DNA of 64,000 nucleotides from Escherichia coli (GCF_050920415.1 NZ_CP169309.1), one strand, 5' to 3'. Positions 5,232 to 53,795 are shown, counted from the first letter of the stretch. A program made the numbers and translations. The notes: generated by a model not told the origin, from the letters alone.

Positions 5232-5641
5232 CAGACTGGGTCCTGAATCAAAGAAGGGGAGAGTAAAGACTCTTTCCAGGCATCGGCAATATTGCGCATT
5301 AATGCTTCCACTTCTTCGACTGCGGAGACATCGTTGCGTAAATTGGCTTGCAGCAAGCGCCTGACCATATAGCTATAAAGAGCAATCAAGTTTTGGGTTA
5401 GTTCGTCTTTGCTCTCTTCATCAAGACTCACCTGCAGCCCGTTCTCAATGATGTTGATCGCTTTTGACAAAGAGACGCCTTTGCCTTGCTGATTGTTGTC
5501 CTGCATAAACAGGCGCGCTCTAACCAGTGCGCTCAGCACTCCATCAAATAGCATGGTGACCAGCTGCTGCTGGCTGGCGCTCATTACGGCGCTTTCGACG
5601 CCAATTTGTGCATAGGCCTGGGTGCCTTTTGCCGCGTACAT
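5231..5641 (-). CDS. fliS: Flagellin-specific chaperone FliS
   Basis: 136 aa ORF; synteny. Confidence 0.9.
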
Positions 5642-5656
5642 AGTTTCTCCTGAAGA

Positions 5657-7072
5657 TTATTTCGAGTTGCTATTTGAGGTGTCGAACTGCTGTGTCAGAT
5701 AGCTACTGGTGGAGTTAAGCGAGTTCATTAACACATCTAATTGGGTGAACTGGGCTTTATAGCGCGTCATTAAGGTATCGATACGCTCACTGGCTGCGTT
5801 GTACTGGTCGGTCAAATTATTCAGCGTTTTGCTGACGCCATCTTTTGCGGCCTGGATTATCCCGGTGGAAGAGAGCCAACTGGTTAGGTTGCTACTAATG
5901 CCGGTGGTTACCCCTGTACTTTTACCGTCACCTATAAACATTTCACCGATGCCAGTGGCATCTTTTTTTAGCGCCGTTTGCAGTTTGTCGGTCGCGATTT
6001 CCAGCTTGCCGGTACTGGCATCGCTGGTAATGCCAATCTGTGCCAGCGTTTTATAGTTTGAACTGCTGTGAGTATTGGCGAGCAAGGTTTTAAGCTGAGT
6101 CTGGATGGTACGCAGTGTGGAGTCACCGAGTAATGCGCCATTGCTGGAGTCCTGACTCTCTGCTCCGGCATCGACAGCGGTGTATTTGGTTAAGCTGCTG
6201 AACGTATCCTGCAATGAGTTATAGGCATCCACCCACGCTTTAACCGCATTTTCAGCTTTGGATGTGTCTTTACTGATGGTCAGTGTCTGATTACCGGTGG
6301 TGACGTCATTCAGGTTGAGGGTGATATCTTCCAGCGCGTCGCTGATAGTGTTACTACTGTTTTCAATCTCAACGTTATTGACTGTCAGTTTGGCGTTTTG
6401 CGCAGTGACGCTTTCAATCATGCCATTGCTGCTATCACCCGACGTTCCGTTGTAACCCATAAAACTTTCCAGGGCGCTGTCGCCGCTGACGCTAAGATTC
6501 ATAGCGTTATCGCTGCCCGTATCGTTAGCGGTGATGGACAGACGATATTCGCCGTTTCCCACATTGATGATACTGGCGCTGACACCAGCTTTGGCGTTGT
6601 TAATGGCATCGCGAATGCCGGAAAGTGACGAGTTACCCGCGCTGATATCAATCGTGACCGGATCTTTACCGCCGCCTTGTTGGATGGTCAGTACGCTATC
6701 GCTGGTGGCGATGGCGGCTTTACTGTCTTTTTGACTATTTTTTGTTGTCAGCGTCTGTGCCTGCGCCAGTTGGCTAACGCTAATGGTGTATTTCCCGGCA
6801 ATCGCGCTGCCCGTGGTGGTGGCGCTGAAAGCCGATGAACTGCTGGTGGTTGAGGTGGCGGTAAATAAATCGGCTTTATTCAGTGCTGTGTTGGCTGTCT
6901 GGAAACTCTCTAGTGCACTTTTCAGCGTCCCGTAGGCGCTCAGTTTCGCGGTGTAAGAGCTTTGCTGTTTTGATATCGGCGTCAGGGTAGATTTTTCTGC
7001 CGCCTCCAGACTGTCAAGGATGCTGCTTAAGTCCAGCCCCGACCCAACCCCAAGCGTTGAAATACTAGCCAT
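5657..7072 (-). CDS. fliD: Flagellar filament cap protein FliD
   Basis: 471 aa ORF with conserved FliD termini. Confidence 0.9.
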   Translation of the reverse strand: MASISTLGVGSGLDLSSILDSLEAAEKSTLTPISKQQSSYTAKLSAYGTLKSALESFQTANTALNKADLFTATSTTSSSSAFSATTTGSAIAGKYTISVSQLAQAQTLTTKNSQKDSKAAIATSDSVLTIQQGGGKDPVTIDISAGNSSLSGIRDAINNAKAGVSASIINVGNGEYRLSITANDTGSDNAMNLSVSGDSALESFMGYNGTSGDSSNGMIESVTAQNAKLTVNNVEIENSSNTISDALEDITLNLNDVTTGNQTLTISKDTSKAENAVKAWVDAYNSLQDTFSSLTKYTAVDAGAESQDSSNGALLGDSTLRTIQTQLKTLLANTHSSSNYKTLAQIGITSDASTGKLEIATDKLQTALKKDATGIGEMFIGDGKSTGVTTGISSNLTSWLSSTGIIQAAKDGVSKTLNNLTDQYNAASERIDTLMTRYKAQFTQLDVLMNSLNSTSSYLTQQFDTSNSNSK

Positions 7073-15241: not shown

Positions 15242-15898
15242 TTGATCAACGTTCTACTTGTTGATGACCACGAACTGGTGCGCGCAGGGATACGACGCAT
15301 TCTGGAAGATATAAAGGGTATAAAAGTCGTTGGTGAGGCATCGTGCGGTGAAGACGCCGTTAAGTGGTGCCGGGCAAATGCCGTTGACGTGGTGCTAATG
15401 GACATGAGTATGCCGGGCATTGGCGGTCTTGAGGCGACGCGTAAAATCGCGCGTTCCACAGCTGATGTAAAAATCATCATGCTTACGGTCCATACAGAAA
15501 ACCCTTTACCAGCGAAAGTCATGCAGGCCGGTGCTGCTGGCTACCTCAGCAAAGGCGCGGCTCCGCAGGAAGTCGTGAGTGCGATTCGTTCTGTTTATTC
15601 TGGACAGCGTTACATTGCTTCTGACATCGCTCAACAAATGGCGTTAAGCCAGATCGAACCAGAAAAAACAGAAAGCCCATTTGCCAGTTTGTCTGAACGT
15701 GAATTGCAGATTATGCTGATGATCACCAAGGGCCAGAAGGTCAATGAGATCTCAGAACAGCTCAATCTCAGTCCGAAAACGGTGAACAGCTACCGCTATC
15801 GTATGTTCAGTAAACTAAACATTCATGGCGATGTTGAGCTGACTCACCTGGCAATTCGCCATGGTCTGTGTAATGCGGAGACATTATCAAGTCAGTGA
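15242..15898 (+). CDS. uvrY: Response regulator UvrY
   Basis: 218 aa ORF with receiver domain and LuxR-type HTH. Confidence 0.95.
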
Positions 15899-17727
15899 GT
15901 GATCAGTTTGACGCAAAAGCGTTTTTAAAAACCGTAACCAGCCAGCCAGGCGTTTATCGCATGTACGATGCTGGTGGTACGGTTATCTATGTCGGCAAAG
16001 CGAAAGACCTGAAAAAACGGCTTTCCAGCTATTTCCGTAGCAACCTCGCTTCGCGCAAAACCGAAGCGCTGGTCGCCCAGATCCAGCAAATTGATGTAAC
16101 GGTTACTCATACAGAAACCGAAGCGCTGTTGCTGGAACACAACTACATCAAACTCTATCAGCCGCGTTATAACGTTTTGCTACGCGATGATAAATCTTAT
16201 CCTTTTATCTTCCTGAGTGGCGATACCCACCCGCGTCTGGCGATGCATCGTGGTGCGAAGCATGCCAAAGGTGAATATTTCGGCCCGTTCCCGAATGGCT
16301 ATGCCGTACGTGAAACACTGGCGTTACTGCAAAAGATATTCCCCATTCGCCAGTGCGAAAATAGTGTTTATCGCAATCGCTCGCGTCCGTGTCTGCAATA
16401 TCAGATAGGGCGCTGTCTGGGACCGTGCGTTGAAGGACTGGTGAGTGAAGAAGAATACGCTCAGCAGGTCGAGTATGTGCGCCTGTTTTTGTCTGGCAAA
16501 GATGATCAGGTGCTTACGCAACTCATTAGCCGTATGGAAACTGCCAGCCAGAATCTGGAGTTTGAAGAAGCGGCACGTATTCGCGACCAAATTCAGGCGG
16601 TGCGACGCGTCACCGAAAAACAGTTTGTGTCCAATACCGGCGACGACCTTGACGTTATTGGTGTGGCGTTCGATGCGGGCATGGCTTGTGTCCACGTATT
16701 GTTCATTCGTCAGGGTAAAGTGCTCGGCAGCCGCAGCTATTTCCCGAAAGTGCCGGGCGGTACGGAACTGAGCGAGGTGGTGGAAACCTTCGTAGGTCAG
16801 TTCTATTTACAAGGCAGCCAGATGCGCACCTTACCGGGTGAGATCCTGCTCGATTTTAATCTTAGCGATAAAACGCTGCTCGCCGATTCCCTTTCAGAAC
16901 TGGCGGGACGCAAGATTAATGTTCAAACCAAACCTCGCGGCGATCGGGCGCGTTATCTGAAACTCGCGCGCACCAATGCGGCGACGGCCTTAACCAGCAA
17001 ACTTTCGCAGCAATCTACCGTTCACCAGCGACTGACCGCGCTTGCCAGCGTGTTGAAATTGCCGGAAGTGAAGCGGATGGAGTGCTTTGACATCAGCCAT
17101 ACCATGGGTGAACAAACCGTCGCCTCCTGTGTGGTATTTGATGCTAACGGCCCGCTGCGTGCGGAGTATCGGCGCTATAACATTACTGGCATTACGCCGG
17201 GCGATGATTATGCGGCGATGAATCAGGTGCTGCGTCGGCGTTATGGTAAAGCCATCGACGACAGTAAGATCCCGGATGTGATCCTTATCGACGGCGGCAA
17301 AGGCCAGCTTGCACAGGCGAAAAATGTCTTCGCCGAACTGGATGTCTCATGGGATAAAAATCATCCGCTGCTACTTGGCGTTGCCAAAGGAGCAGATAGG
17401 AAGGCTGGGTTGGAAACGCTGTTCTTTGAGCCGGAAGGTGAGGGATTCAGTTTGCCGCCAGATTCTCCCGCGCTGCATGTTATCCAACATATTCGCGACG
17501 AATCACACGATCACGCGATTGGCGGGCACCGCAAAAAACGGGCGAAGGTCAAAAATACCAGTTCCCTGGAAGCCATTGAAGGCGTCGGGCCAAAACGTCG
17601 GCAAATGTTGTTGAAATATATGGGCGGTTTGCAAGGTTTACGTAACGCCAGCGTCGAGGAAATTGCAAAAGTGCCGGGTATTTCGCAAGGTCTGGCAGAA
17701 AAGATCTTCTGGTCGTTGAAACATTGA
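15895..17727 (+). CDS. uvrC: Excinuclease ABC subunit C
   Basis: 610 aa ORF with GIY-YIG N-terminus ([13 protein letters not shown]). Confidence 0.95.
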
Positions 17728-17783: not shown

Positions 17784-18332
17784 ATGCAATTTAATATCCC
17801 TACGTTGCTTACACTGTTCCGTGTCATCCTTATCCCATTCTTTGTATTGGTCTTTTATCTGCCTGTCACCTGGTCGCCGTTTGCCGCCGCGCTCATTTTC
17901 TGCGTCGCGGCGGTGACTGACTGGTTCGATGGTTTTCTGGCACGCCGCTGGAACCAGAGTACCCGGTTTGGTGCTTTCCTTGACCCTGTAGCAGATAAAG
18001 TTCTCGTGGCTATCGCCATGGTGCTGGTAACCGAGCATTATCACAGCTGGTGGGTGACATTACCGGCGGCAACGATGATCGCCCGTGAAATTATTATTTC
18101 TGCGCTACGCGAATGGATGGCAGAGTTGGGTAAACGCAGTAGCGTGGCTGTCTCCTGGATTGGGAAAGTGAAAACCACTGCCCAGATGGTAGCGCTGGCC
18201 TGGCTGCTGTGGCGTCCGAACATTTGGGTTGAGTACGCCGGTATTGCACTTTTCTTTGTGGCTGCGGTACTGACTCTGTGGTCAATGTTGCAATATTTGA
18301 GCGCTGCGCGTGCAGATTTGCTTGATCAGTGA
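17784..18332 (+). CDS. pgsA: CDP-diacylglycerol--glycerol-3-phosphate 3-phosphatidyltransferase
   Basis: 182 aa membrane ORF with CDP-alcohol phosphatidyltransferase motif. Confidence 0.95.
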
Positions 18333-18483: not shown

Positions 18484-18559
<76 letters not shown>

Positions 18560-18612
18560 GTTTAAAAGACATCGGCTTCAGCGGATGTCCGGCTGAAAGG
18601 CCTGAAGAATTT

Positions 18613-18686
18613 GGCGCGTTAACAAAGCGGTTATGTAGCGGATTGCAAATCCGTCTAGTCCGGTTCGACTCCGGAACGCGCCTCCA
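18613..18686 (+). tRNA. cysT: tRNA-Cys (GCA)
   Basis: 74 nt GGCGCGTTAACAAAG...CGCCTCCA, anticodon GCA. Confidence 0.95.
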
Positions 18687-18698
18687 CTTTCTTCCCGA

Positions 18699-18785
18699 GC
18701 CCGGATGGTGGAATCGGTAGACACAAGGGATTTAAAATCCCTCGGCGTTCGCGCTGTGCGGGTTCAAGTCCCGCTCCGGGTACCA
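18699..18785 (+). tRNA. leuZ: tRNA-Leu (TAA)
   Basis: 87 nt GCCCGGATGGTGGAATCGG...GGGTACCA, anticodon TAA; 3' two thirds lie in the prophage att repeat. Confidence 0.95.
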
Positions 18786-18855
18786 TGGGAAAGATAAGAA
18801 TAAAATCAAAGCAATAAGCAGTGTCGTGAAACCACCTTCGGGTGGTTTTTTTGTA
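18731..18855. repeat. attL: 125-bp direct repeat (3' 55 nt of tRNA-Leu plus the tRNA-operon terminator)
   Basis: Identical to 53671..53795. Confidence 0.9.
18829..18853 (+). terminator. glyW-cysT-leuZ operon terminator
   Basis: Hairpin ACCACC-TTCG-GGTGGT followed by TTTTTTT; duplicated at 53769..53793 inside attR. Confidence 0.7.
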
Positions 18856-18868
18856 TTTGTATTTTGTT

Positions 18869-18900
18869 AAATGGCGGTAAAGTGGCGATGGTGTGGCGAT
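18869..18900 (+). repeat. Candidate arm-type integrase-binding repeats (attL arm)
   Basis: Three tandem AAAGTGGCGAT-like copies; the same motif recurs next to int at 53564..53608. Confidence 0.4.
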
Positions 18901-18990
18901 ATGCAGAAATAATGATAGTACACGTCTGTTTAAACTCTAAGGGTGAAGCAAAACTCTCCTGCAACTCATCTGCATTTCGCATATTGAACT

Positions 18991-19092
18991 AGGGCCTTGG
19001 TTAAACCAAAGTTTTTTCTGGGATCTTCCCACTCAACTTCATTTTTCCTCCTACCATCCACCAAAAGGTGTCTGCGCTACTCTATCTTTTTT
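18991..19092 (+). repeat. Diverged ~105-bp direct repeat, copy A
   Basis: About 70% identical to 19994..20105 in the same orientation (TAGGGCCTYGGTTAAAC...CCACC...AAAGG...TCTATC...TTTTTT). Confidence 0.6.
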
Positions 19093-19325
19093 AATCTGAC
19101 AACATCCTGAGAAAAAGACAAATTCGTTAGATTTACTGTCTTTCTGCTGCCTCGAATGCTGATGTCTGCAGCACTGATAATAACTCTATCTCTTTGATAT
19201 AGATCTTTTTTTTGATGAATTGCACGGCATATTATCGTGATGGCACCTTCTTGTTAAAGGTGTTGTACTCCTCATCTCGATTTTATGATGTGGGCTATGA
19301 TTGGTTAGTAATAGAGTGTATCGGT

Positions 19326-19607
19326 ATGCGATGTGGTTTATTAATGGCAATCTGCCTTTGTTTGGTATCTTTTAGTGGGTATGCAGCAACAGGAAAGTCA
19401 GATGCTCAGATCAAGAAAGAAATAATTAAAGAGTCCATTGAATCTTATCCAGGCAATTGTGCGTGTCCGTATAATCATGCAAGGAATGGTAGTAGATGTG
19501 GTGGACGCAGTGCATATAGCCGTACTGGAGGGTATGACGTGGTATGTTATGAAAGTGATGTTACCGATGAAATGATCCGGCAATGGAAGCAGGAGAATGC
19601 TGAGTAA
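19326..19607 (+). CDS. Small Cys-rich secreted protein (prophage moron, function unknown)
   Basis: Signal-peptide-like N-terminus MRCGLLMAICLCLVSFSGYAA, then a Cys-rich mature region; low-GC islet; start uncertain (ORF track begins 19212). Confidence 0.5.
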   Translation: MRCGLLMAICLCLVSFSGYAATGKSDAQIKKEIIKESIESYPGNCACPYNHARNGSRCGGRSAYSRTGGYDVVCYESDVTDEMIRQWKQENAE

Positions 19608-19680
19608 TCTCTTTTAACTGATTTGTTGTGCGAGCATAATGTGCAGTTAACGGCTCACTAGCTAGTGAGAGTTCCAAAAA

Positions 19681-19717
19681 GAAACCCCGCAGTTTTTACG
19701 CTGCGGGGTTGTTATTC
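19681..19717 (+). terminator. Hairpin terminator after the moron gene
   Basis: AACCCCGCAG-TTTTTACG-CTGCGGGGTT followed by a T-rich stretch. Confidence 0.45.
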
Positions 19718-19993
19718 ATGCCTATGAGATAGGGTGCCTTATCGGCCTTACCCTGGCAACCGATTGACGGGGAGTTGCCTCCCCGTCGCGGTTTCCTTAC
19801 TGCTTACACTGTAAGAACGCCGCAAACTCCGCTCCCCAGAAGCTCATCCGTATTTCACACAGCGAACCGTGCAGCATCCAGATGATGAGGATTACCGTCA
19901 CGCAGAACGTGATGGCCGTAAGCGATTTTTGCGACATAGCGCTTGCTCCTTTGTTGGAGAGGCGCTAACCTATCACTTGCTAGGTTGACGGGT

Positions 19994-20105
19994 TAGGGCC
20001 TCGGTTAAACAGAAATGTTTTCCGGGGCCTTTCCACATCCGGCCTTCGGGTATTCCCTCCGACCATCAGCCGAAAGGCACCCGCACGTAATCTATCGCTT
20101 TTTTG
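19994..20105 (+). repeat. Diverged ~105-bp direct repeat, copy B
   Basis: Homologous to 18991..19092; lies immediately 3' of ogr. Confidence 0.6.
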
Positions 20106-20126
20106 TTACTCCGGCAATTCTGCCTG

Positions 20127-20387
20127 TTAATTCTGAGGTAAAGGCAAACTCATCTGATTGTTTCCCCTGTGTGAAGCTGGCAGCTCATGCCACGGGATAC
20201 CTTCTGAAGAGTGAACGCCGGAGGCGTGTTTTGATGTGAATTTATGGAAAGCTTCCAGTGTTGAGAAGCATACGCCGCATTCCAGATTGTTACACTGGTA
20301 ATACTTTTGCCGCACGGTGTTTGAATCATTTTCCGGACGACTGGTGCGGATACGGGCAGATGCGCCACAAAGCGGACAACGGAACAT
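20127..20387 (-). CDS. ogr: Ogr/Delta-type zinc-finger late-gene transcriptional activator
   Basis: MFRCPLCG...YYQCNNLECGVCF four-Cys arrangement typical of P2 Ogr; start may be downstream of the ORF-track start. Confidence 0.8.
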   Translation of the reverse strand: MFRCPLCGASARIRTSRPENDSNTVRQKYYQCNNLECGVCFSTLEAFHKFTSKHASGVHSSEGIPWHELPASHRGNNQMSLPLPQN

Positions 20388-20429: not shown

Positions 20430-21539
20430 TCACTCTGTTTCCGCTATCCATTCCGGGATTTTTGCTTCAAGCTCAAGCTGCGTGGTAAAGCCGCTGTTAT
20501 CAATGGTGTGCTCGGCTTTTGCAATAATCCAGTCCTGATTGTCGATGTCACTTTTGAAGCCTGTCACCGTGCCATGCATTTCGGGATAGAGTTCTGCACG
20601 TCCACGCGCCAGCGTGATGGAGAATGATGCGGCTCCGCGTTGTAGTTGCTGCCACTTTGCCGCCGCTGCGCGTCTTGCTGCCTGCTCGTTCTGATAAGTC
20701 TTGCGTAACACAAACACATTGCCTTCCGCGCCTTCCATATAATCACCTTCACGGCTGCTGCTTTTCTCCTTTTTGGGTTTTGGCGGTTTACGGCGTTTTA
20801 CGCTGACTTTTTTCTTTTTCCCGTAATTAAGATCAAGCCAGTAGGCGCGTACCCCCGTATACGCCTCGCGGTCAGCAATACGGAACTGATGGCGATCGCC
20901 GCTGCTGCGTGTAATGGCGAACGAGGGCAACGGCTGGCCCTGTGCGTTCACGCCACCACCTGGCATGATGAATAACAGATTGCCGCTTTTTACCGTGGTG
21001 ATTGCGCCCAGCATTTCCGCCATGCGCGTAAGGAAGGACATGTCGCTTTCTTCGGTCTGGTCGGCGTGGTCGATTTCAATATCCATCAGCATTTCGCTGA
21101 TTTGCGGTTTCAGGCCGTATCGGTGAGCAATTGCAGACACCACGCGTTCAACGGTCACATCATGCCAGGATACTTCGCGCTTGACGTTAAATTCATCCCG
21201 AAAATCTGCGCTTCTGGCTGAAATGGTCAGTCTGTCGGGCGGTCCTTCATGAGCAATTTCATCAACAATGTAAGTGCCTTTTTCTGTCAGCGGTTCTCCT
21301 TTCCAGCCAATGAGAACCGTCAGGCGCGCGCCCCGTGGCGGTAGCTGCAACTGACCATCTGCATCATCCAGCGTGATGGTGAGCTGGTCCGCCTCAAATC
21401 CCCGGTTGTCGGTCAGTGACAGGCTCATCAGGCGCTCTGCCACGCCTGACAGCGTTTTACCCTCCGCGAGAATATCAAAATCCGGCATTTTCACGGGGTC
21501 TGTGCCCTGACTGAGCAATTGCATGGTGGTGTCGGTCAT
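20430..21539 (-). CDS. Tail protein gpD (late control gene D family)
   Basis: About 369 aa from MTDTTMQLLS; recalled gpD family features; ORF-track N-terminal extension to 21671 judged spurious. Confidence 0.8.
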   Translation of the reverse strand: MTDTTMQLLSQGTDPVKMPDFDILAEGKTLSGVAERLMSLSLTDNRGFEADQLTITLDDADGQLQLPPRGARLTVLIGWKGEPLTEKGTYIVDEIAHEGPPDRLTISARSADFRDEFNVKREVSWHDVTVERVVSAIAHRYGLKPQISEMLMDIEIDHADQTEESDMSFLTRMAEMLGAITTVKSGNLLFIMPGGGVNAQGQPLPSFAITRSSGDRHQFRIADREAYTGVRAYWLDLNYGKKKKVSVKRRKPPKPKKEKSSSREGDYMEGAEGNVFVLRKTYQNEQAARRAAAAKWQQLQRGAASFSITLARGRAELYPEMHGTVTGFKSDIDNQDWIIAKAEHTIDNSGFTTQLELEAKIPEWIAETE

Positions 21540-21696
21540 CTGTTCCCTCCCTGTGCGGCATGGTCGCATGTGCGTGCGGAGGGGGTTACTGCTTTTTGTT
21601 GTCGCCGTGGCGGGAGAACGGCGCAGGGGTGAGATTACGCGCGTGGTGGGTGATGATTGTTGCCGAATCATTTAACGGATACAAGGGGCTGAAGCT

Positions 21697-52562: not shown

Positions 52563-53564
52563 ATGTCGGTTCGTAAGATTCCATCAGGTAAATGGCTTTG
52601 CGAATGTTATCCCTACGGGGCATCGGGAAAACGCATTCGTAAACAGTTTGCGACAAAAAGTGAGGCGCTCTCTTATGAGCGCCGTTTAATGAATAGTAGA
52701 GTTGGAGACGAGTTTCAAGATGGTTCTGGTCCTCGTCTTTCTGAGTTGATTGCTCGTTGGTTTGAGATGTACGGTAAAACCTTGTCCTCTGGTGCAGAGC
52801 GCAAAGTCAAACTTGAGGCGATTTGTTCCAGGCTGGGAGATCCATTTGCTTCTCAGTTTGACAAAAATATGTTTGCTACTTATCGGGAAAGAAGGCTATC
52901 AGGAGAATGGAATCCCAAGGGGAAGAAAAAACTTAGTGAAGCAACCGTTAATCGCGAGCAGTCATATCTACATGCTGTTTTTGCCGAACTGAAGCGCCTT
53001 GGGGAGTGGTCTGGTGAAAACCCCCTGACTGGTATTCGCAAGTTTCGTGAGGAAGAAAAGGAACTGGCGTTTCTGTATGTAGATGAGATTGAACGCCTTC
53101 TGATTGCGTGTGATGAGTCACGGAATAAAGATTTGGGGGTTGTTGTCCGTATTGGGCTTGCGACTGGTGCTCGGTGGAGTGAAGCAGAAGGATTAAAGCA
53201 ATCTCAAGTACTGCCCGGTCGAATCACATTTGTTAAAACTAAAGGAAAGAAGAACCGCACTGTACCGATTTCACCTCAATTGCAGGCTATGCTTCCTAAA
53301 AAACGAGGAGCGCTATTTTCACCATGTTATGAGGCTTTTGACGCTGCAATTAAGAGAGCGAAGATCGAGCTTCCTGATGGGCAATTAACTCATGTGCTAC
53401 GTCACACGTTTGCCAGTCATTTTATGATGCGGGGCGGAAATATTCTTGTGTTGCAAAAAATACTGGGGCATAGCGATATAAAAATGACTATGCGTTATGC
53501 GCATTTTGCTCCAGGTCATTTAGAGGCTGCTGTTGAATTGAACCCTTTTGACAATAGAGGGTAA
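52563..53564 (+). CDS. int: Tyrosine integrase (P2 Int-like)
   Basis: 333 aa with catalytic box HVLRHTFASHFMMRGGNILVLQKILGHSDIKMTMRYAHF; adjacent to attR. Confidence 0.9.
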   Translation: MSVRKIPSGKWLCECYPYGASGKRIRKQFATKSEALSYERRLMNSRVGDEFQDGSGPRLSELIARWFEMYGKTLSSGAERKVKLEAICSRLGDPFASQFDKNMFATYRERRLSGEWNPKGKKKLSEATVNREQSYLHAVFAELKRLGEWSGENPLTGIRKFREEEKELAFLYVDEIERLLIACDESRNKDLGVVVRIGLATGARWSEAEGLKQSQVLPGRITFVKTKGKKNRTVPISPQLQAMLPKKRGALFSPCYEAFDAAIKRAKIELPDGQLTHVLRHTFASHFMMRGGNILVLQKILGHSDIKMTMRYAHFAPGHLEAAVELNPFDNRG

Positions 53565-53608
53565 AAAGTGGCGATAAAAAGTGACAATAGATTCAAATGG
53601 CGTTGTAT
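53564..53608 (+). repeat. Candidate arm-type integrase-binding repeats (attR arm)
   Basis: AAAAGTGGCGATA, AAAAGTGACAATA and CAAATGGCGTTGTA; same motif family as 18869..18900. Confidence 0.4.
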
Positions 53609-53670
53609 AGAGCCATTTTCAAAGTTAATAAAATCATAAGGTTATGATTTATAAATGGTGGTTGATAGTT

Positions 53671-53795
53671 TTTAAAATCCCTCGGCGTTCGCGCTGTGCG
53701 GGTTCAAGTCCCGCTCCGGGTACCATGGGAAAGATAAGAATAAAATCAAAGCAATAAGCAGTGTCGTGAAACCACCTTCGGGTGGTTTTTTTGTA
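53671..53795. repeat. attR: 125-bp direct repeat (partial tRNA-Leu 3' end plus terminator)
   Basis: Identical to 18731..18855. Confidence 0.9.

Follow-up and report, generated by a model that had tools for sequence, protein, structure and literature searches.

An apparently intact hok/sok-type unit and a decayed copy flank a gene for a Cys-rich protein at the ogr-side end of a P2-like prophage of Escherichia coli

The DNA analysed here is a single stretch of 64,000 nucleotides from Escherichia coli (NZ_CP169309.1), referred to in its whole length as the window. Near uvrC, pgsA and a cluster of tRNA genes, an islet lies between an att repeat and an ogr-type gene. It holds two diverged repeat copies, a gene for a small Cys-rich protein, and a short toxin ORF. 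The features of the islet and its surroundings are listed below in window coordinates.

15895-17727: uvrC
17784-18332: pgsA
18484-18785: genes for tRNA-Gly, tRNA-Cys and tRNA-Leu
18731-18855, plus strand: att repeat at the ogr-side junction, consisting of the 3' part of tRNA-Leu(taa) and its terminator
18856-18925, no strand assigned: ogr-side att arm with two direct GTGGCGAT motifs, at 18882-18889 and 18893-18900
18926-19105, minus strand: decayed hok/sok unit (copy 1), assigned from homology to copy 2, pair loss, weak folds and divergence
19106-19325, plus strand: upstream region of the Cys-rich gene, part of the cassette
19326-19607, plus strand: gene for a Cys-rich protein of 93 aa (ORF; RefSeq WP_001303543.1, hypothetical protein)
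19676-20082, minus strand: predicted full-length hok mRNA, with repeat copy 2 as its 5' leader
19683-19710, no strand assigned: terminator hairpin, G+C-rich and followed by a T run, scoring on both strands
19797-19937, minus strand: hok toxin ORF of 46 aa, MSQKSLTAITFCVTVILIIWMLHGSLCEIRMSFWGAEFAAFLQCKQ (Pfam PF01848, PHROG 251, RefSeq)
19943-20033, plus strand: candidate sok-like antisense gene, with a -35 element TTGCTC (19943-19948), 17 nt, and a -10 element TAACCT (19966-19971)
19973-20038, minus strand: mok-like upstream ORF of 21 codons, with a conserved ATG (20038)
20089-20117, minus strand: candidate hok promoter read from the sequence (TTGCCG, 17 nt, TAGATT), 6 nt upstream of 20082
20127-20387, minus strand: ogr-type late transcription activator (RefSeq annotation), the first conserved P2-like gene past the islet
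20430-21671, minus strand: gpD-type gene
52563-53564: integrase ORF of 333 aa, identified by its position

Identity with the core chromosome of E. coli, followed through more than 5,400 complete E. coli genomes, ends at 18854-18856. The final 26 nt before this junction have one further occurrence, at 53769-53794, and both junctions are identical over at least 18770-18855. Read directly, the att duplication spans ~18731-18855 and ~53670-53794, and its left limit at ~18731 falls inside tRNA-Leu. Because the att repeat is found at both junctions, together with the integrase ORF and the ogr-type and gpD-type genes, the islet is part of a ~35-kb P2-like prophage, in which ogr bounds it on one side and the att repeat on the other. 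Phage P2 has only ~100 nt from the stop codon of ogr (24254) to the attP core (24356), so the ~1.27 kb found here between att and ogr constitute extra DNA. A previous sequence-only reading of this region had already proposed about 1.3 kb of extra DNA in place of the short spacer of P2, and its description of a low GC content holds as well, with 40.0% in 18856-19660 compared with 52.7% in the remaining prophage. The arm next to the att core deserves separate mention. Eleven matches to GTGGCGAT are present in the window compared with 2.8 expected, one of them just after int at 53568, and a Salmonella prophage at the same integration site has AAAGTGGCGATAGTGGCGGCGAT at the position equivalent to that of the GTGGCGAT motifs. 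The P-arm site of P2 Int lies at a similar distance from its core. These motifs are likely candidates for Int arm-type sites.

The two diverged direct repeats that had been described as flanking the gene are genuinely homologous. A repeat search matched 18990-19032 with 19994-20036 at 79% identity, and the gapped local alignment of 19092-18990 with 20104-19994 reached a score of 55, far above the 18.3 ± 2.2 of shuffled sequences (maximum 27, n=500). Over the leader, copies 1 and 2 share ~75% identity without any long exact stretch, and both are read on the minus strand. The homology also extends beyond the repeats as first described. On one side it reaches into a promoter remnant, to ~19105. 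On the other side, past a gap of 126 nt, a second homologous block (18989-18926 against 19867-19800) gave a score reached by none of 1000 shuffles. The repeats are very probably the regulatory leader of a hok/sok-type unit (copy 2) and a decayed second copy (copy 1).

The minus-strand ORF of 46 aa, which the sequence-only reading had overlooked together with the strand from which the repeats have to be read, matches Pfam PF01848 (HOK_GEF) over residues 7-44 (E 4.3e-7) and PHROG 251 ("MokW-like host killing"; E 2.5e-23). It also matches NCBIfam HokA (E 6e-9) at 35.8 bits, under the curated cut-off of 89, and RefSeq labels the same ORF a "Hok/Gef family protein" in other strains. On the hok strand, 19927-20082 matches Rfam RF01794 ("sok antitoxin") with 47.3 bits (E 1.3e-8), below the gathering score of 59; the match covers the full model, whose position 1 aligns to 20082. 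The predicted hok mRNA has a tac-like element at its 5' end, GGGTGCCTTTCGGC (20082-20069), and an fbi-like element towards its 3' end, GGCCGATAAGGCACCC (19747-19732). Folding of the RNA from 20085 to 19715 gave a minimum free energy of -159.9 kcal/mol compared with -125.6 ± 5.4 for shuffled sequences (z -6.4). The minimum-energy fold closes the 5' end on the 3' end, with GGGUGCCUUUCGGC from 20082 (20082-20068) paired to GGCCGAUAAGGCACCC at 19747-19732. Such a 5'-3' fold-back between tac and fbi is a defining feature of hok mRNAs (PMC9841398). The folded hok mRNA is ~370 nt long and the full predicted mRNA ~400 nt. Copy 2 thereby presents itself as the probable 5' leader of an intact-looking hok/sok-type type I toxin-antitoxin unit at ~20117-19676 on the minus strand. 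Behind its candidate promoter, this ogr-proximal unit has a highly conserved leader of ~145 nt, the short mok-like frame and the hok ORF, and it ends with the 3' element predicted to pair with the 5' end and with a terminator. A consensus promoter scan flagged neither the hok nor the sok candidate promoter. The hairpin at 19683-19710, noticed earlier as a terminator downstream of the Cys-rich gene, was recovered, and it is predicted to act as a bidirectional intrinsic terminator, serving the Cys-rich gene and, from the opposite direction, the hok mRNA. Matches of the terminator region to the Rfam models BSnc120 and ClpQY_promoter scored far under the gathering scores and were dismissed as chance.

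We aligned 47 distinct full-length loci of this type of unit; a scan of IMG/VR with a 17-nt leader motif gave more than 120 loci. The first ~100 nt of the leader are nearly invariant across the 47 units, even where the Hok peptide differs. In the RNAalifold consensus, the 5'-3' stem is kept in 45-47 of the 47 loci, with G-C/G-U changes only and none that is compensatory. Because of these changes and the strong conservation of the leader, covariation proves nothing for the stem or the leader helices. On the opposite strand, 19960-20045 folds into a strong hairpin followed by a U run (fold z -3.5), and both candidate sok hexamers are invariant in the 47 loci, as is the hairpin. The hairpin and the hexamers upstream of it might represent a sok gene, with a tentatively assigned promoter. 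The candidate sok-like RNA of ~55 nt (~19978-20033) would end in the hairpin GGGCCUCGG...CCGGGGCC followed by UUU.

Copy 2 shares the hydrophobic N-terminal half of its peptide with hok/sok (parB) of plasmid R1 and with the chromosomal and prophage hok/gef systems of E. coli (PF01848; RF01794). The C-terminal ...SLCEIR...AAF..., the long structured leader and the 5'-3' fold-back are likewise those of hok/gef systems. As in R1-type hok/sok, the mRNA is ~400 nt long and the upstream ORF begins in the region covered by the antisense RNA, here a candidate. Copy 2 departs from the curated hok families in its Rfam and NCBIfam scores, which lie below the thresholds, and from the R1 type in its mok-like ORF, which with its 21 codons ends 35 nt before the hok ATG and does not overlap hok. 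Among the 47 relatives, the corresponding ORF has 78 codons and overlaps hok in seven, and it has 10-29 codons in the others. A mok frame that overlaps hok, or runs as far as the hok Shine-Dalgarno sequence, is absent from the copy 2 unit. For R1 it has been reported that mok must be translated at least as far as the Shine-Dalgarno sequence of hok (PMC9841398). Because mok is truncated here, the intact-looking unit may be attenuated, or regulated or coupled differently from that of R1.

Units of the copy 2 type are widespread. They adjoin ogr in prophages integrated at ihfA and at copA, occur with 94-96% nucleotide identity in the P2-like phages P88, Chuche, P884B11 and 500465-2 and in Citrobacter phage Shae_phiSM, and are found at ~83% identity in many Stx-converting phages. 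Copy 2 does not differ substantially from the "MokW-like host killing" genes of P88, Chuche, Xuanwuvirus P884B11 and 500465-2, from the hok of Stx phages, or from PHROG 251, and in the P2-like phages this gene has the same position near ogr and the tail genes as in our window. The system of copy 2 is already known, being a hok/sok unit annotated in RefSeq and in phage genomes. Neither copy 1 nor the Cys-rich cassette had a counterpart in the phage collection. This distribution bears on the earlier suggestion that the repeats stem from a duplicated att arm, which would supply sites for the binding of Int, IHF or Cox. Copy 1 does begin only ~70 nt from the att core, as that idea would have it, but copy 2 lies 1.1 kb from the core, and units of its type also lie at the ends of prophages that use other integrases and att sites (ihfA, copA). 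Since free phage genomes and the lambdoid Stx phages have such units too, copy 2 is not att-arm sequence. The plausible arm-type motif, GTGGCGAT at 18882-18900, moreover lies outside the repeats and recurs by int and, as AAAGTGGCGATAGTGGCGGCGAT, in Salmonella. We reject the att-arm suggestion, to which we concede next to no probability, and continue with the repeats as hok/sok sequences.

Copy 1 has suffered several kinds of damage. Its promoter remnant (~19105-19079) reads TTGTCA-12-TAGAGT, compared with TTGCCG-17-TAGATT in copy 2, so that the spacer measures 12 instead of 17 nt. The leader remnant (19092-18990) directly abuts a hok remnant (18989-18926) that corresponds to the C-terminal half of hok, frameshifted and with a 4-nt gap (SSICEMQMS... 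against GSLCEIRMS... in copy 2). The 126 nt that copy 1 lacks, 19868-19993 in copy 2, include the candidate sok promoter, the Shine-Dalgarno sequence and ATG of hok, and its first ~23 codons, and the same deletion is present in all three islet variants compared. Of the 26 leader pairs in the family consensus, 15 remain in copy 1 and 11 are lost, whereas copy 2 keeps 26 of 26, a score to be read with the fact that the consensus structure was derived from a family that includes copy 2-type units. The folds of copy 1 are no better than those of shuffled sequences on either strand (z -0.66 and -1.08), and an Rfam search of copy 1 alone (301-nt search, E ≤ 10) gave no match. It is also the most diverged segment of the islet, with 84-86% identity compared with 93-97% for the upstream spacer and the Cys-rich CDS and 98% for the hok CDS, and its faster divergence is supported statistically (Fisher p 1.5e-5). 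Its GC content of 40.6% is near that of the cassette; intact hok units have 53.4%. Because of the deletion, the frameshift, the loss of pairs, the null folds, the missing Rfam match and the fastest divergence, copy 1 is a pseudogene of a hok/sok unit and not a functional RNA.

One could suppose instead that copy 1 serves as a non-coding element, for example as an orphan Sok-like or decoy RNA in cross-talk with copy 2 or with the Sok/hok of an incoming phage. Leader-only remnants do recur, at two other loci (L010 and L038) and in the third unit of a Salmonella array (Rfam sok score 48.4), and the stretch of copy 1 homologous to the Sok terminator region is kept at 79%. Such an RNA would, however, have to do without the candidate sok promoter, which was part of the missing 126 nt, and the hok-type promoter has a 12-nt spacer. 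The null folds, the loss of 11 of 26 pairs, the absence of an Rfam match and the fastest divergence within the islet also speak against a function, which we judge very improbable. The two other options that the sequence-only reading had offered for the repeats are each partly right. A structured RNA fits copy 2, as the leader of the hok mRNA with a candidate sok inside it, and fails for copy 1, whose folds equal those of shuffles. A remnant fits copy 1, the decayed hok/sok unit.

We searched for a close intact relative of the copy 1 pseudogene. With blastn at its 'distant' setting, the only match among 5426 E. coli genomes was the islet itself, present in 645 of them, and the plasmid collection yielded two records, both of the same islet. 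All nine matches to the copy-1-type motif in IMG/VR had the same two-copy arrangement. Among the GTDB species representatives, 13 exact 17-mer matches were found, where by our estimate a few tens would be expected by chance; 12 of them were in unrelated phyla, and the remaining one, in a 'Citrobacter' MAG, agrees with the window over the ~540 nt read. In each comparison with another hok unit, copy 1 reached 68-77% identity, so that no parent could be named. It might have originated either by decay in situ or by import of an already diverged, AT-rich paralogue. Degenerate hok loci have been documented in the chromosome of E. coli (PMC2887945, citing Pedersen & Gerdes 1999), and they were inactivated by deletion and point decay as copy 1 was. 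In contrast to those loci, copy 1 lies inside a prophage, beside an att arm, and is far more AT-rich than intact units.

The gene between the two units had been described as a low-GC gene for a small Cys-rich protein, and this description stands, with an ORF of 93 aa, 260 homologues at E ≤ 1e-3 and four invariant cysteines. The homologues come from E. coli, Salmonella, Oxalobacter, Pseudomonas and many metagenomes, and the family is spread widely through the Proteobacteria. In an alignment of 45 sequences, a variable hydrophobic N-terminus is followed by a conserved domain of ~70 aa with invariant C45, C47, C58 and C74 and the motif SYPGxCxCPYN..RNGSxCGxRSAYSRxGG. The pattern of conservation clearly indicates a real protein under purifying selection, and the N-terminal hydrophobic segment suggests that it is exported. 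No plus-strand promoter for the gene was found in a consensus promoter scan. The protein matches PHROG 27544, whose function is unassigned, over its full length (E 1.5e-59). The members of this family (UniProt A0A2A7LZ07 and Q6D6B3, 'exported protein') have the same motif and four invariant cysteines. Homologues occur in Enterobacterales, Pseudomonas and Oxalobacter, and some of them are automatically named DUF3761 or 'hemolysin'. Neither the protein nor any of the 45 homologues matched a Pfam family, DUF3761 included, at E ≤ 0.001; a lone weak match to Sclerostin was rejected. No model of NCBIfam or PADLOC matched the protein, the PDB sequences contained nothing below E 0.3, and a Foldseek search of AFDB50 returned uncharacterised family members only.

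Other prophages combine the same segments differently. At the copA site (locus L007), the Cys-rich gene and its upstream region adjoin the att arm without copy 1, the homology beginning from about window position 19125, and a gene for serine acetyltransferase lies between the Cys-rich gene and hok. The same uvrC-pgsA-tRNA site is occupied in Salmonella enterica by a P2-like prophage that has, in order, the att arm, a Cys-rich homologue of 109 aa, a leader-only hok unit, two intact hok units and ogr. The leader-only unit breaks off 21 nt past its ATG, where the 3' end of the Cys-rich gene joins it. The Rfam sok scores of the three Salmonella units (locus L130) are 48.4, 64.4 and 38.4, of which 64.4 exceeds the gathering score of 59. 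Because the segments are separable at the copA site and stand in an array in Salmonella, tandem hok arrays with an inserted cassette are recurrent at the att-ogr junction, and the window has one such array, of one intact-looking unit and one fossil.

These arrangements also bear on the possibility that the repeats have no role of their own and are scars or recombination substrates, left when the Cys-rich cassette entered hok units or became trapped between them. The cassette is indeed separable from both units, occurring at the copA site without copy 1, and the fusion of its 3' end to a truncated hok unit in Salmonella implies that cassette insertion into hok arrays has occurred. The two copies in the window, however, share only ~75% identity and no long exact stretch, which fits neither a recent duplication nor a target-site duplication; in many phages copy 2 occurs alone and complete, and the junctions in E. 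coli and Salmonella differ. We regard this possibility as rather unlikely, and it is compatible with the main explanation instead of opposed to it. What looks like "bracketing" reflects a cassette lying within a tandem hok array and not the scars of an insertion.

Taken as a whole, the islet is very probably a prophage hok/sok-type unit with its pseudogene, between which lies a moron of no assigned family function. In the working that we propose, tandem hok/sok-type units, each read on the minus strand, form the basis of the accessory DNA that the ~35-kb prophage carries at its ogr-side end. If the intact-looking unit behaves like hok/sok of plasmid R1, its stable hok mRNA would be folded back and translationally silent until slow trimming of its 3' end opened it. 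The unstable Sok RNA would then pair with the opened leader, and the hok mRNA would be destroyed. A toxic Hok, trimming of the mRNA from its 3' end and cutting of the duplex by RNase III are features of hok/sok described in PMC9841398. If transcription of sok stopped, through loss of the element or a shut-off of transcription in infection, Hok would presumably be made and the inner membrane depolarised. The att-proximal unit (19105-18926) is the fossil of another hok unit, without plausible function, and the AT-rich cassette with the gene for the Cys-rich, presumably exported protein sits between both units. It is because of this position of the cassette that the units appear as diverged direct repeats "bracketing" the gene.

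The finding carries little weight as a discovery, since the apparently unexplained repeats, or new RNA, turn out to be a known hok/sok unit and a pseudogene. It has some value for annotation, as three parts of the islet lack an annotation so far, namely the fossil, the candidate gene for the sok-like RNA and the short mok-like frame. For P2-like prophages, it shows the att-ogr junction to be a site of stacked hok units and cassette insertion. In a bolder view, which we hold to be distinctly improbable, the Cys-rich protein might be a periplasmic effector of the prophage, acting in lysogenic conversion or superinfection exclusion, and the tandem hok arrays might be a landing pad that captures cassettes. 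In this view, too, most P2-type hok units function although their mok is truncated and does not overlap hok, which would make them a variant of the R1 paradigm in their regulation.

The attachment-site duplication, read directly from the sequence, spans about 125 nt (window 18731-18855 = 53670-53794). It covers the ~55 nt at the 3' end of tRNA-Leu(taa) together with the terminator hairpin of this gene, so that phage integration restores the tRNA gene. A short motif lies on both sides of the prophage:

18882-18900, tandem pair of GTGGCGAT, ogr side, 27-45 nt from the att core
53568-53575, single copy of GTGGCGAT, int side, immediately past the int stop codon

The motif occurs 11 times in the window against 2.8 expected, and a Salmonella prophage integrated at the same site (L130) carries AAAGTGGCGATAGTGGCGGCGAT in the equivalent position (L130 4920-4950). 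The GTGGCGAT and AAAGTGGCGATAGTGGCGGCGAT copies are probably arm-type sites for Int.

Most P2-type hok units differ from that of plasmid R1 in the reading frame upstream of hok. The feature in question, also examined in an alignment of 47 distinct full-length P2-type hok units, is located in the window as follows:

19973-20038, minus strand, mok-like ORF

At only 7 of the 47 loci does this ORF, with 78 codons, overlap hok; at the others it is shortened to 10-29 codons and stops 13-68 nt upstream of the hok ATG, despite which the Hok peptide is conserved. In R1, translation of mok as far as the hok Shine-Dalgarno sequence has been reported as required (PMC9841398), whereas the P2-type units mostly have a short, non-overlapping mok-like ORF. 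Two IMG/VR contigs hold remnants with a near-invariant leader followed by unrelated sequence from the hok start codon or shortly beyond:

L010 13906-14279, leader-only hok remnant
L038 4502-4875, leader-only hok remnant

Other P2-like prophages have an additional gene between ogr and D (gpD):

L002 3969-5471, gene for a PIN-domain protein
L003 4387-5526, gene for a YecA-family protein

In the window, ogr (20127-20387) directly adjoins D (20430-21671) with no gene between them. The ogr-D interval is a second variable slot near the islet with hok and the Cys-rich gene. The closest genome, strain 2011C-4251 (NZ_CP027388.1, 99.6%), has an IS3-family element inserted inside the 1.6-kb query region, and the 'AL1L pseudoknot' that RefSeq annotates in the same region is presumably the IS3 frameshift signal.

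In Pseudomonas sp. EpS/L25 (L128 5001-5981), a homologue of the Cys-rich protein adjoins a gene with a Phage_P4_cII domain, among small unannotated ORFs and nuclease genes. Because of this neighbourhood, there are hints that the Cys-rich family is tied to mobile elements beyond Enterobacterales as well. The Salmonella enterica prophage L130 (GCA_042149745.1) has three tandem hok/sok-type units beside ogr (5300-6530). The att-proximal unit retains its promoter and leader but breaks off 21 nt past its ATG, where it is fused to the Cys-rich gene at that gene's stop codon. The two lie on opposite strands, and any RNA made from this unit would therefore read antisense across the Cys-rich gene.
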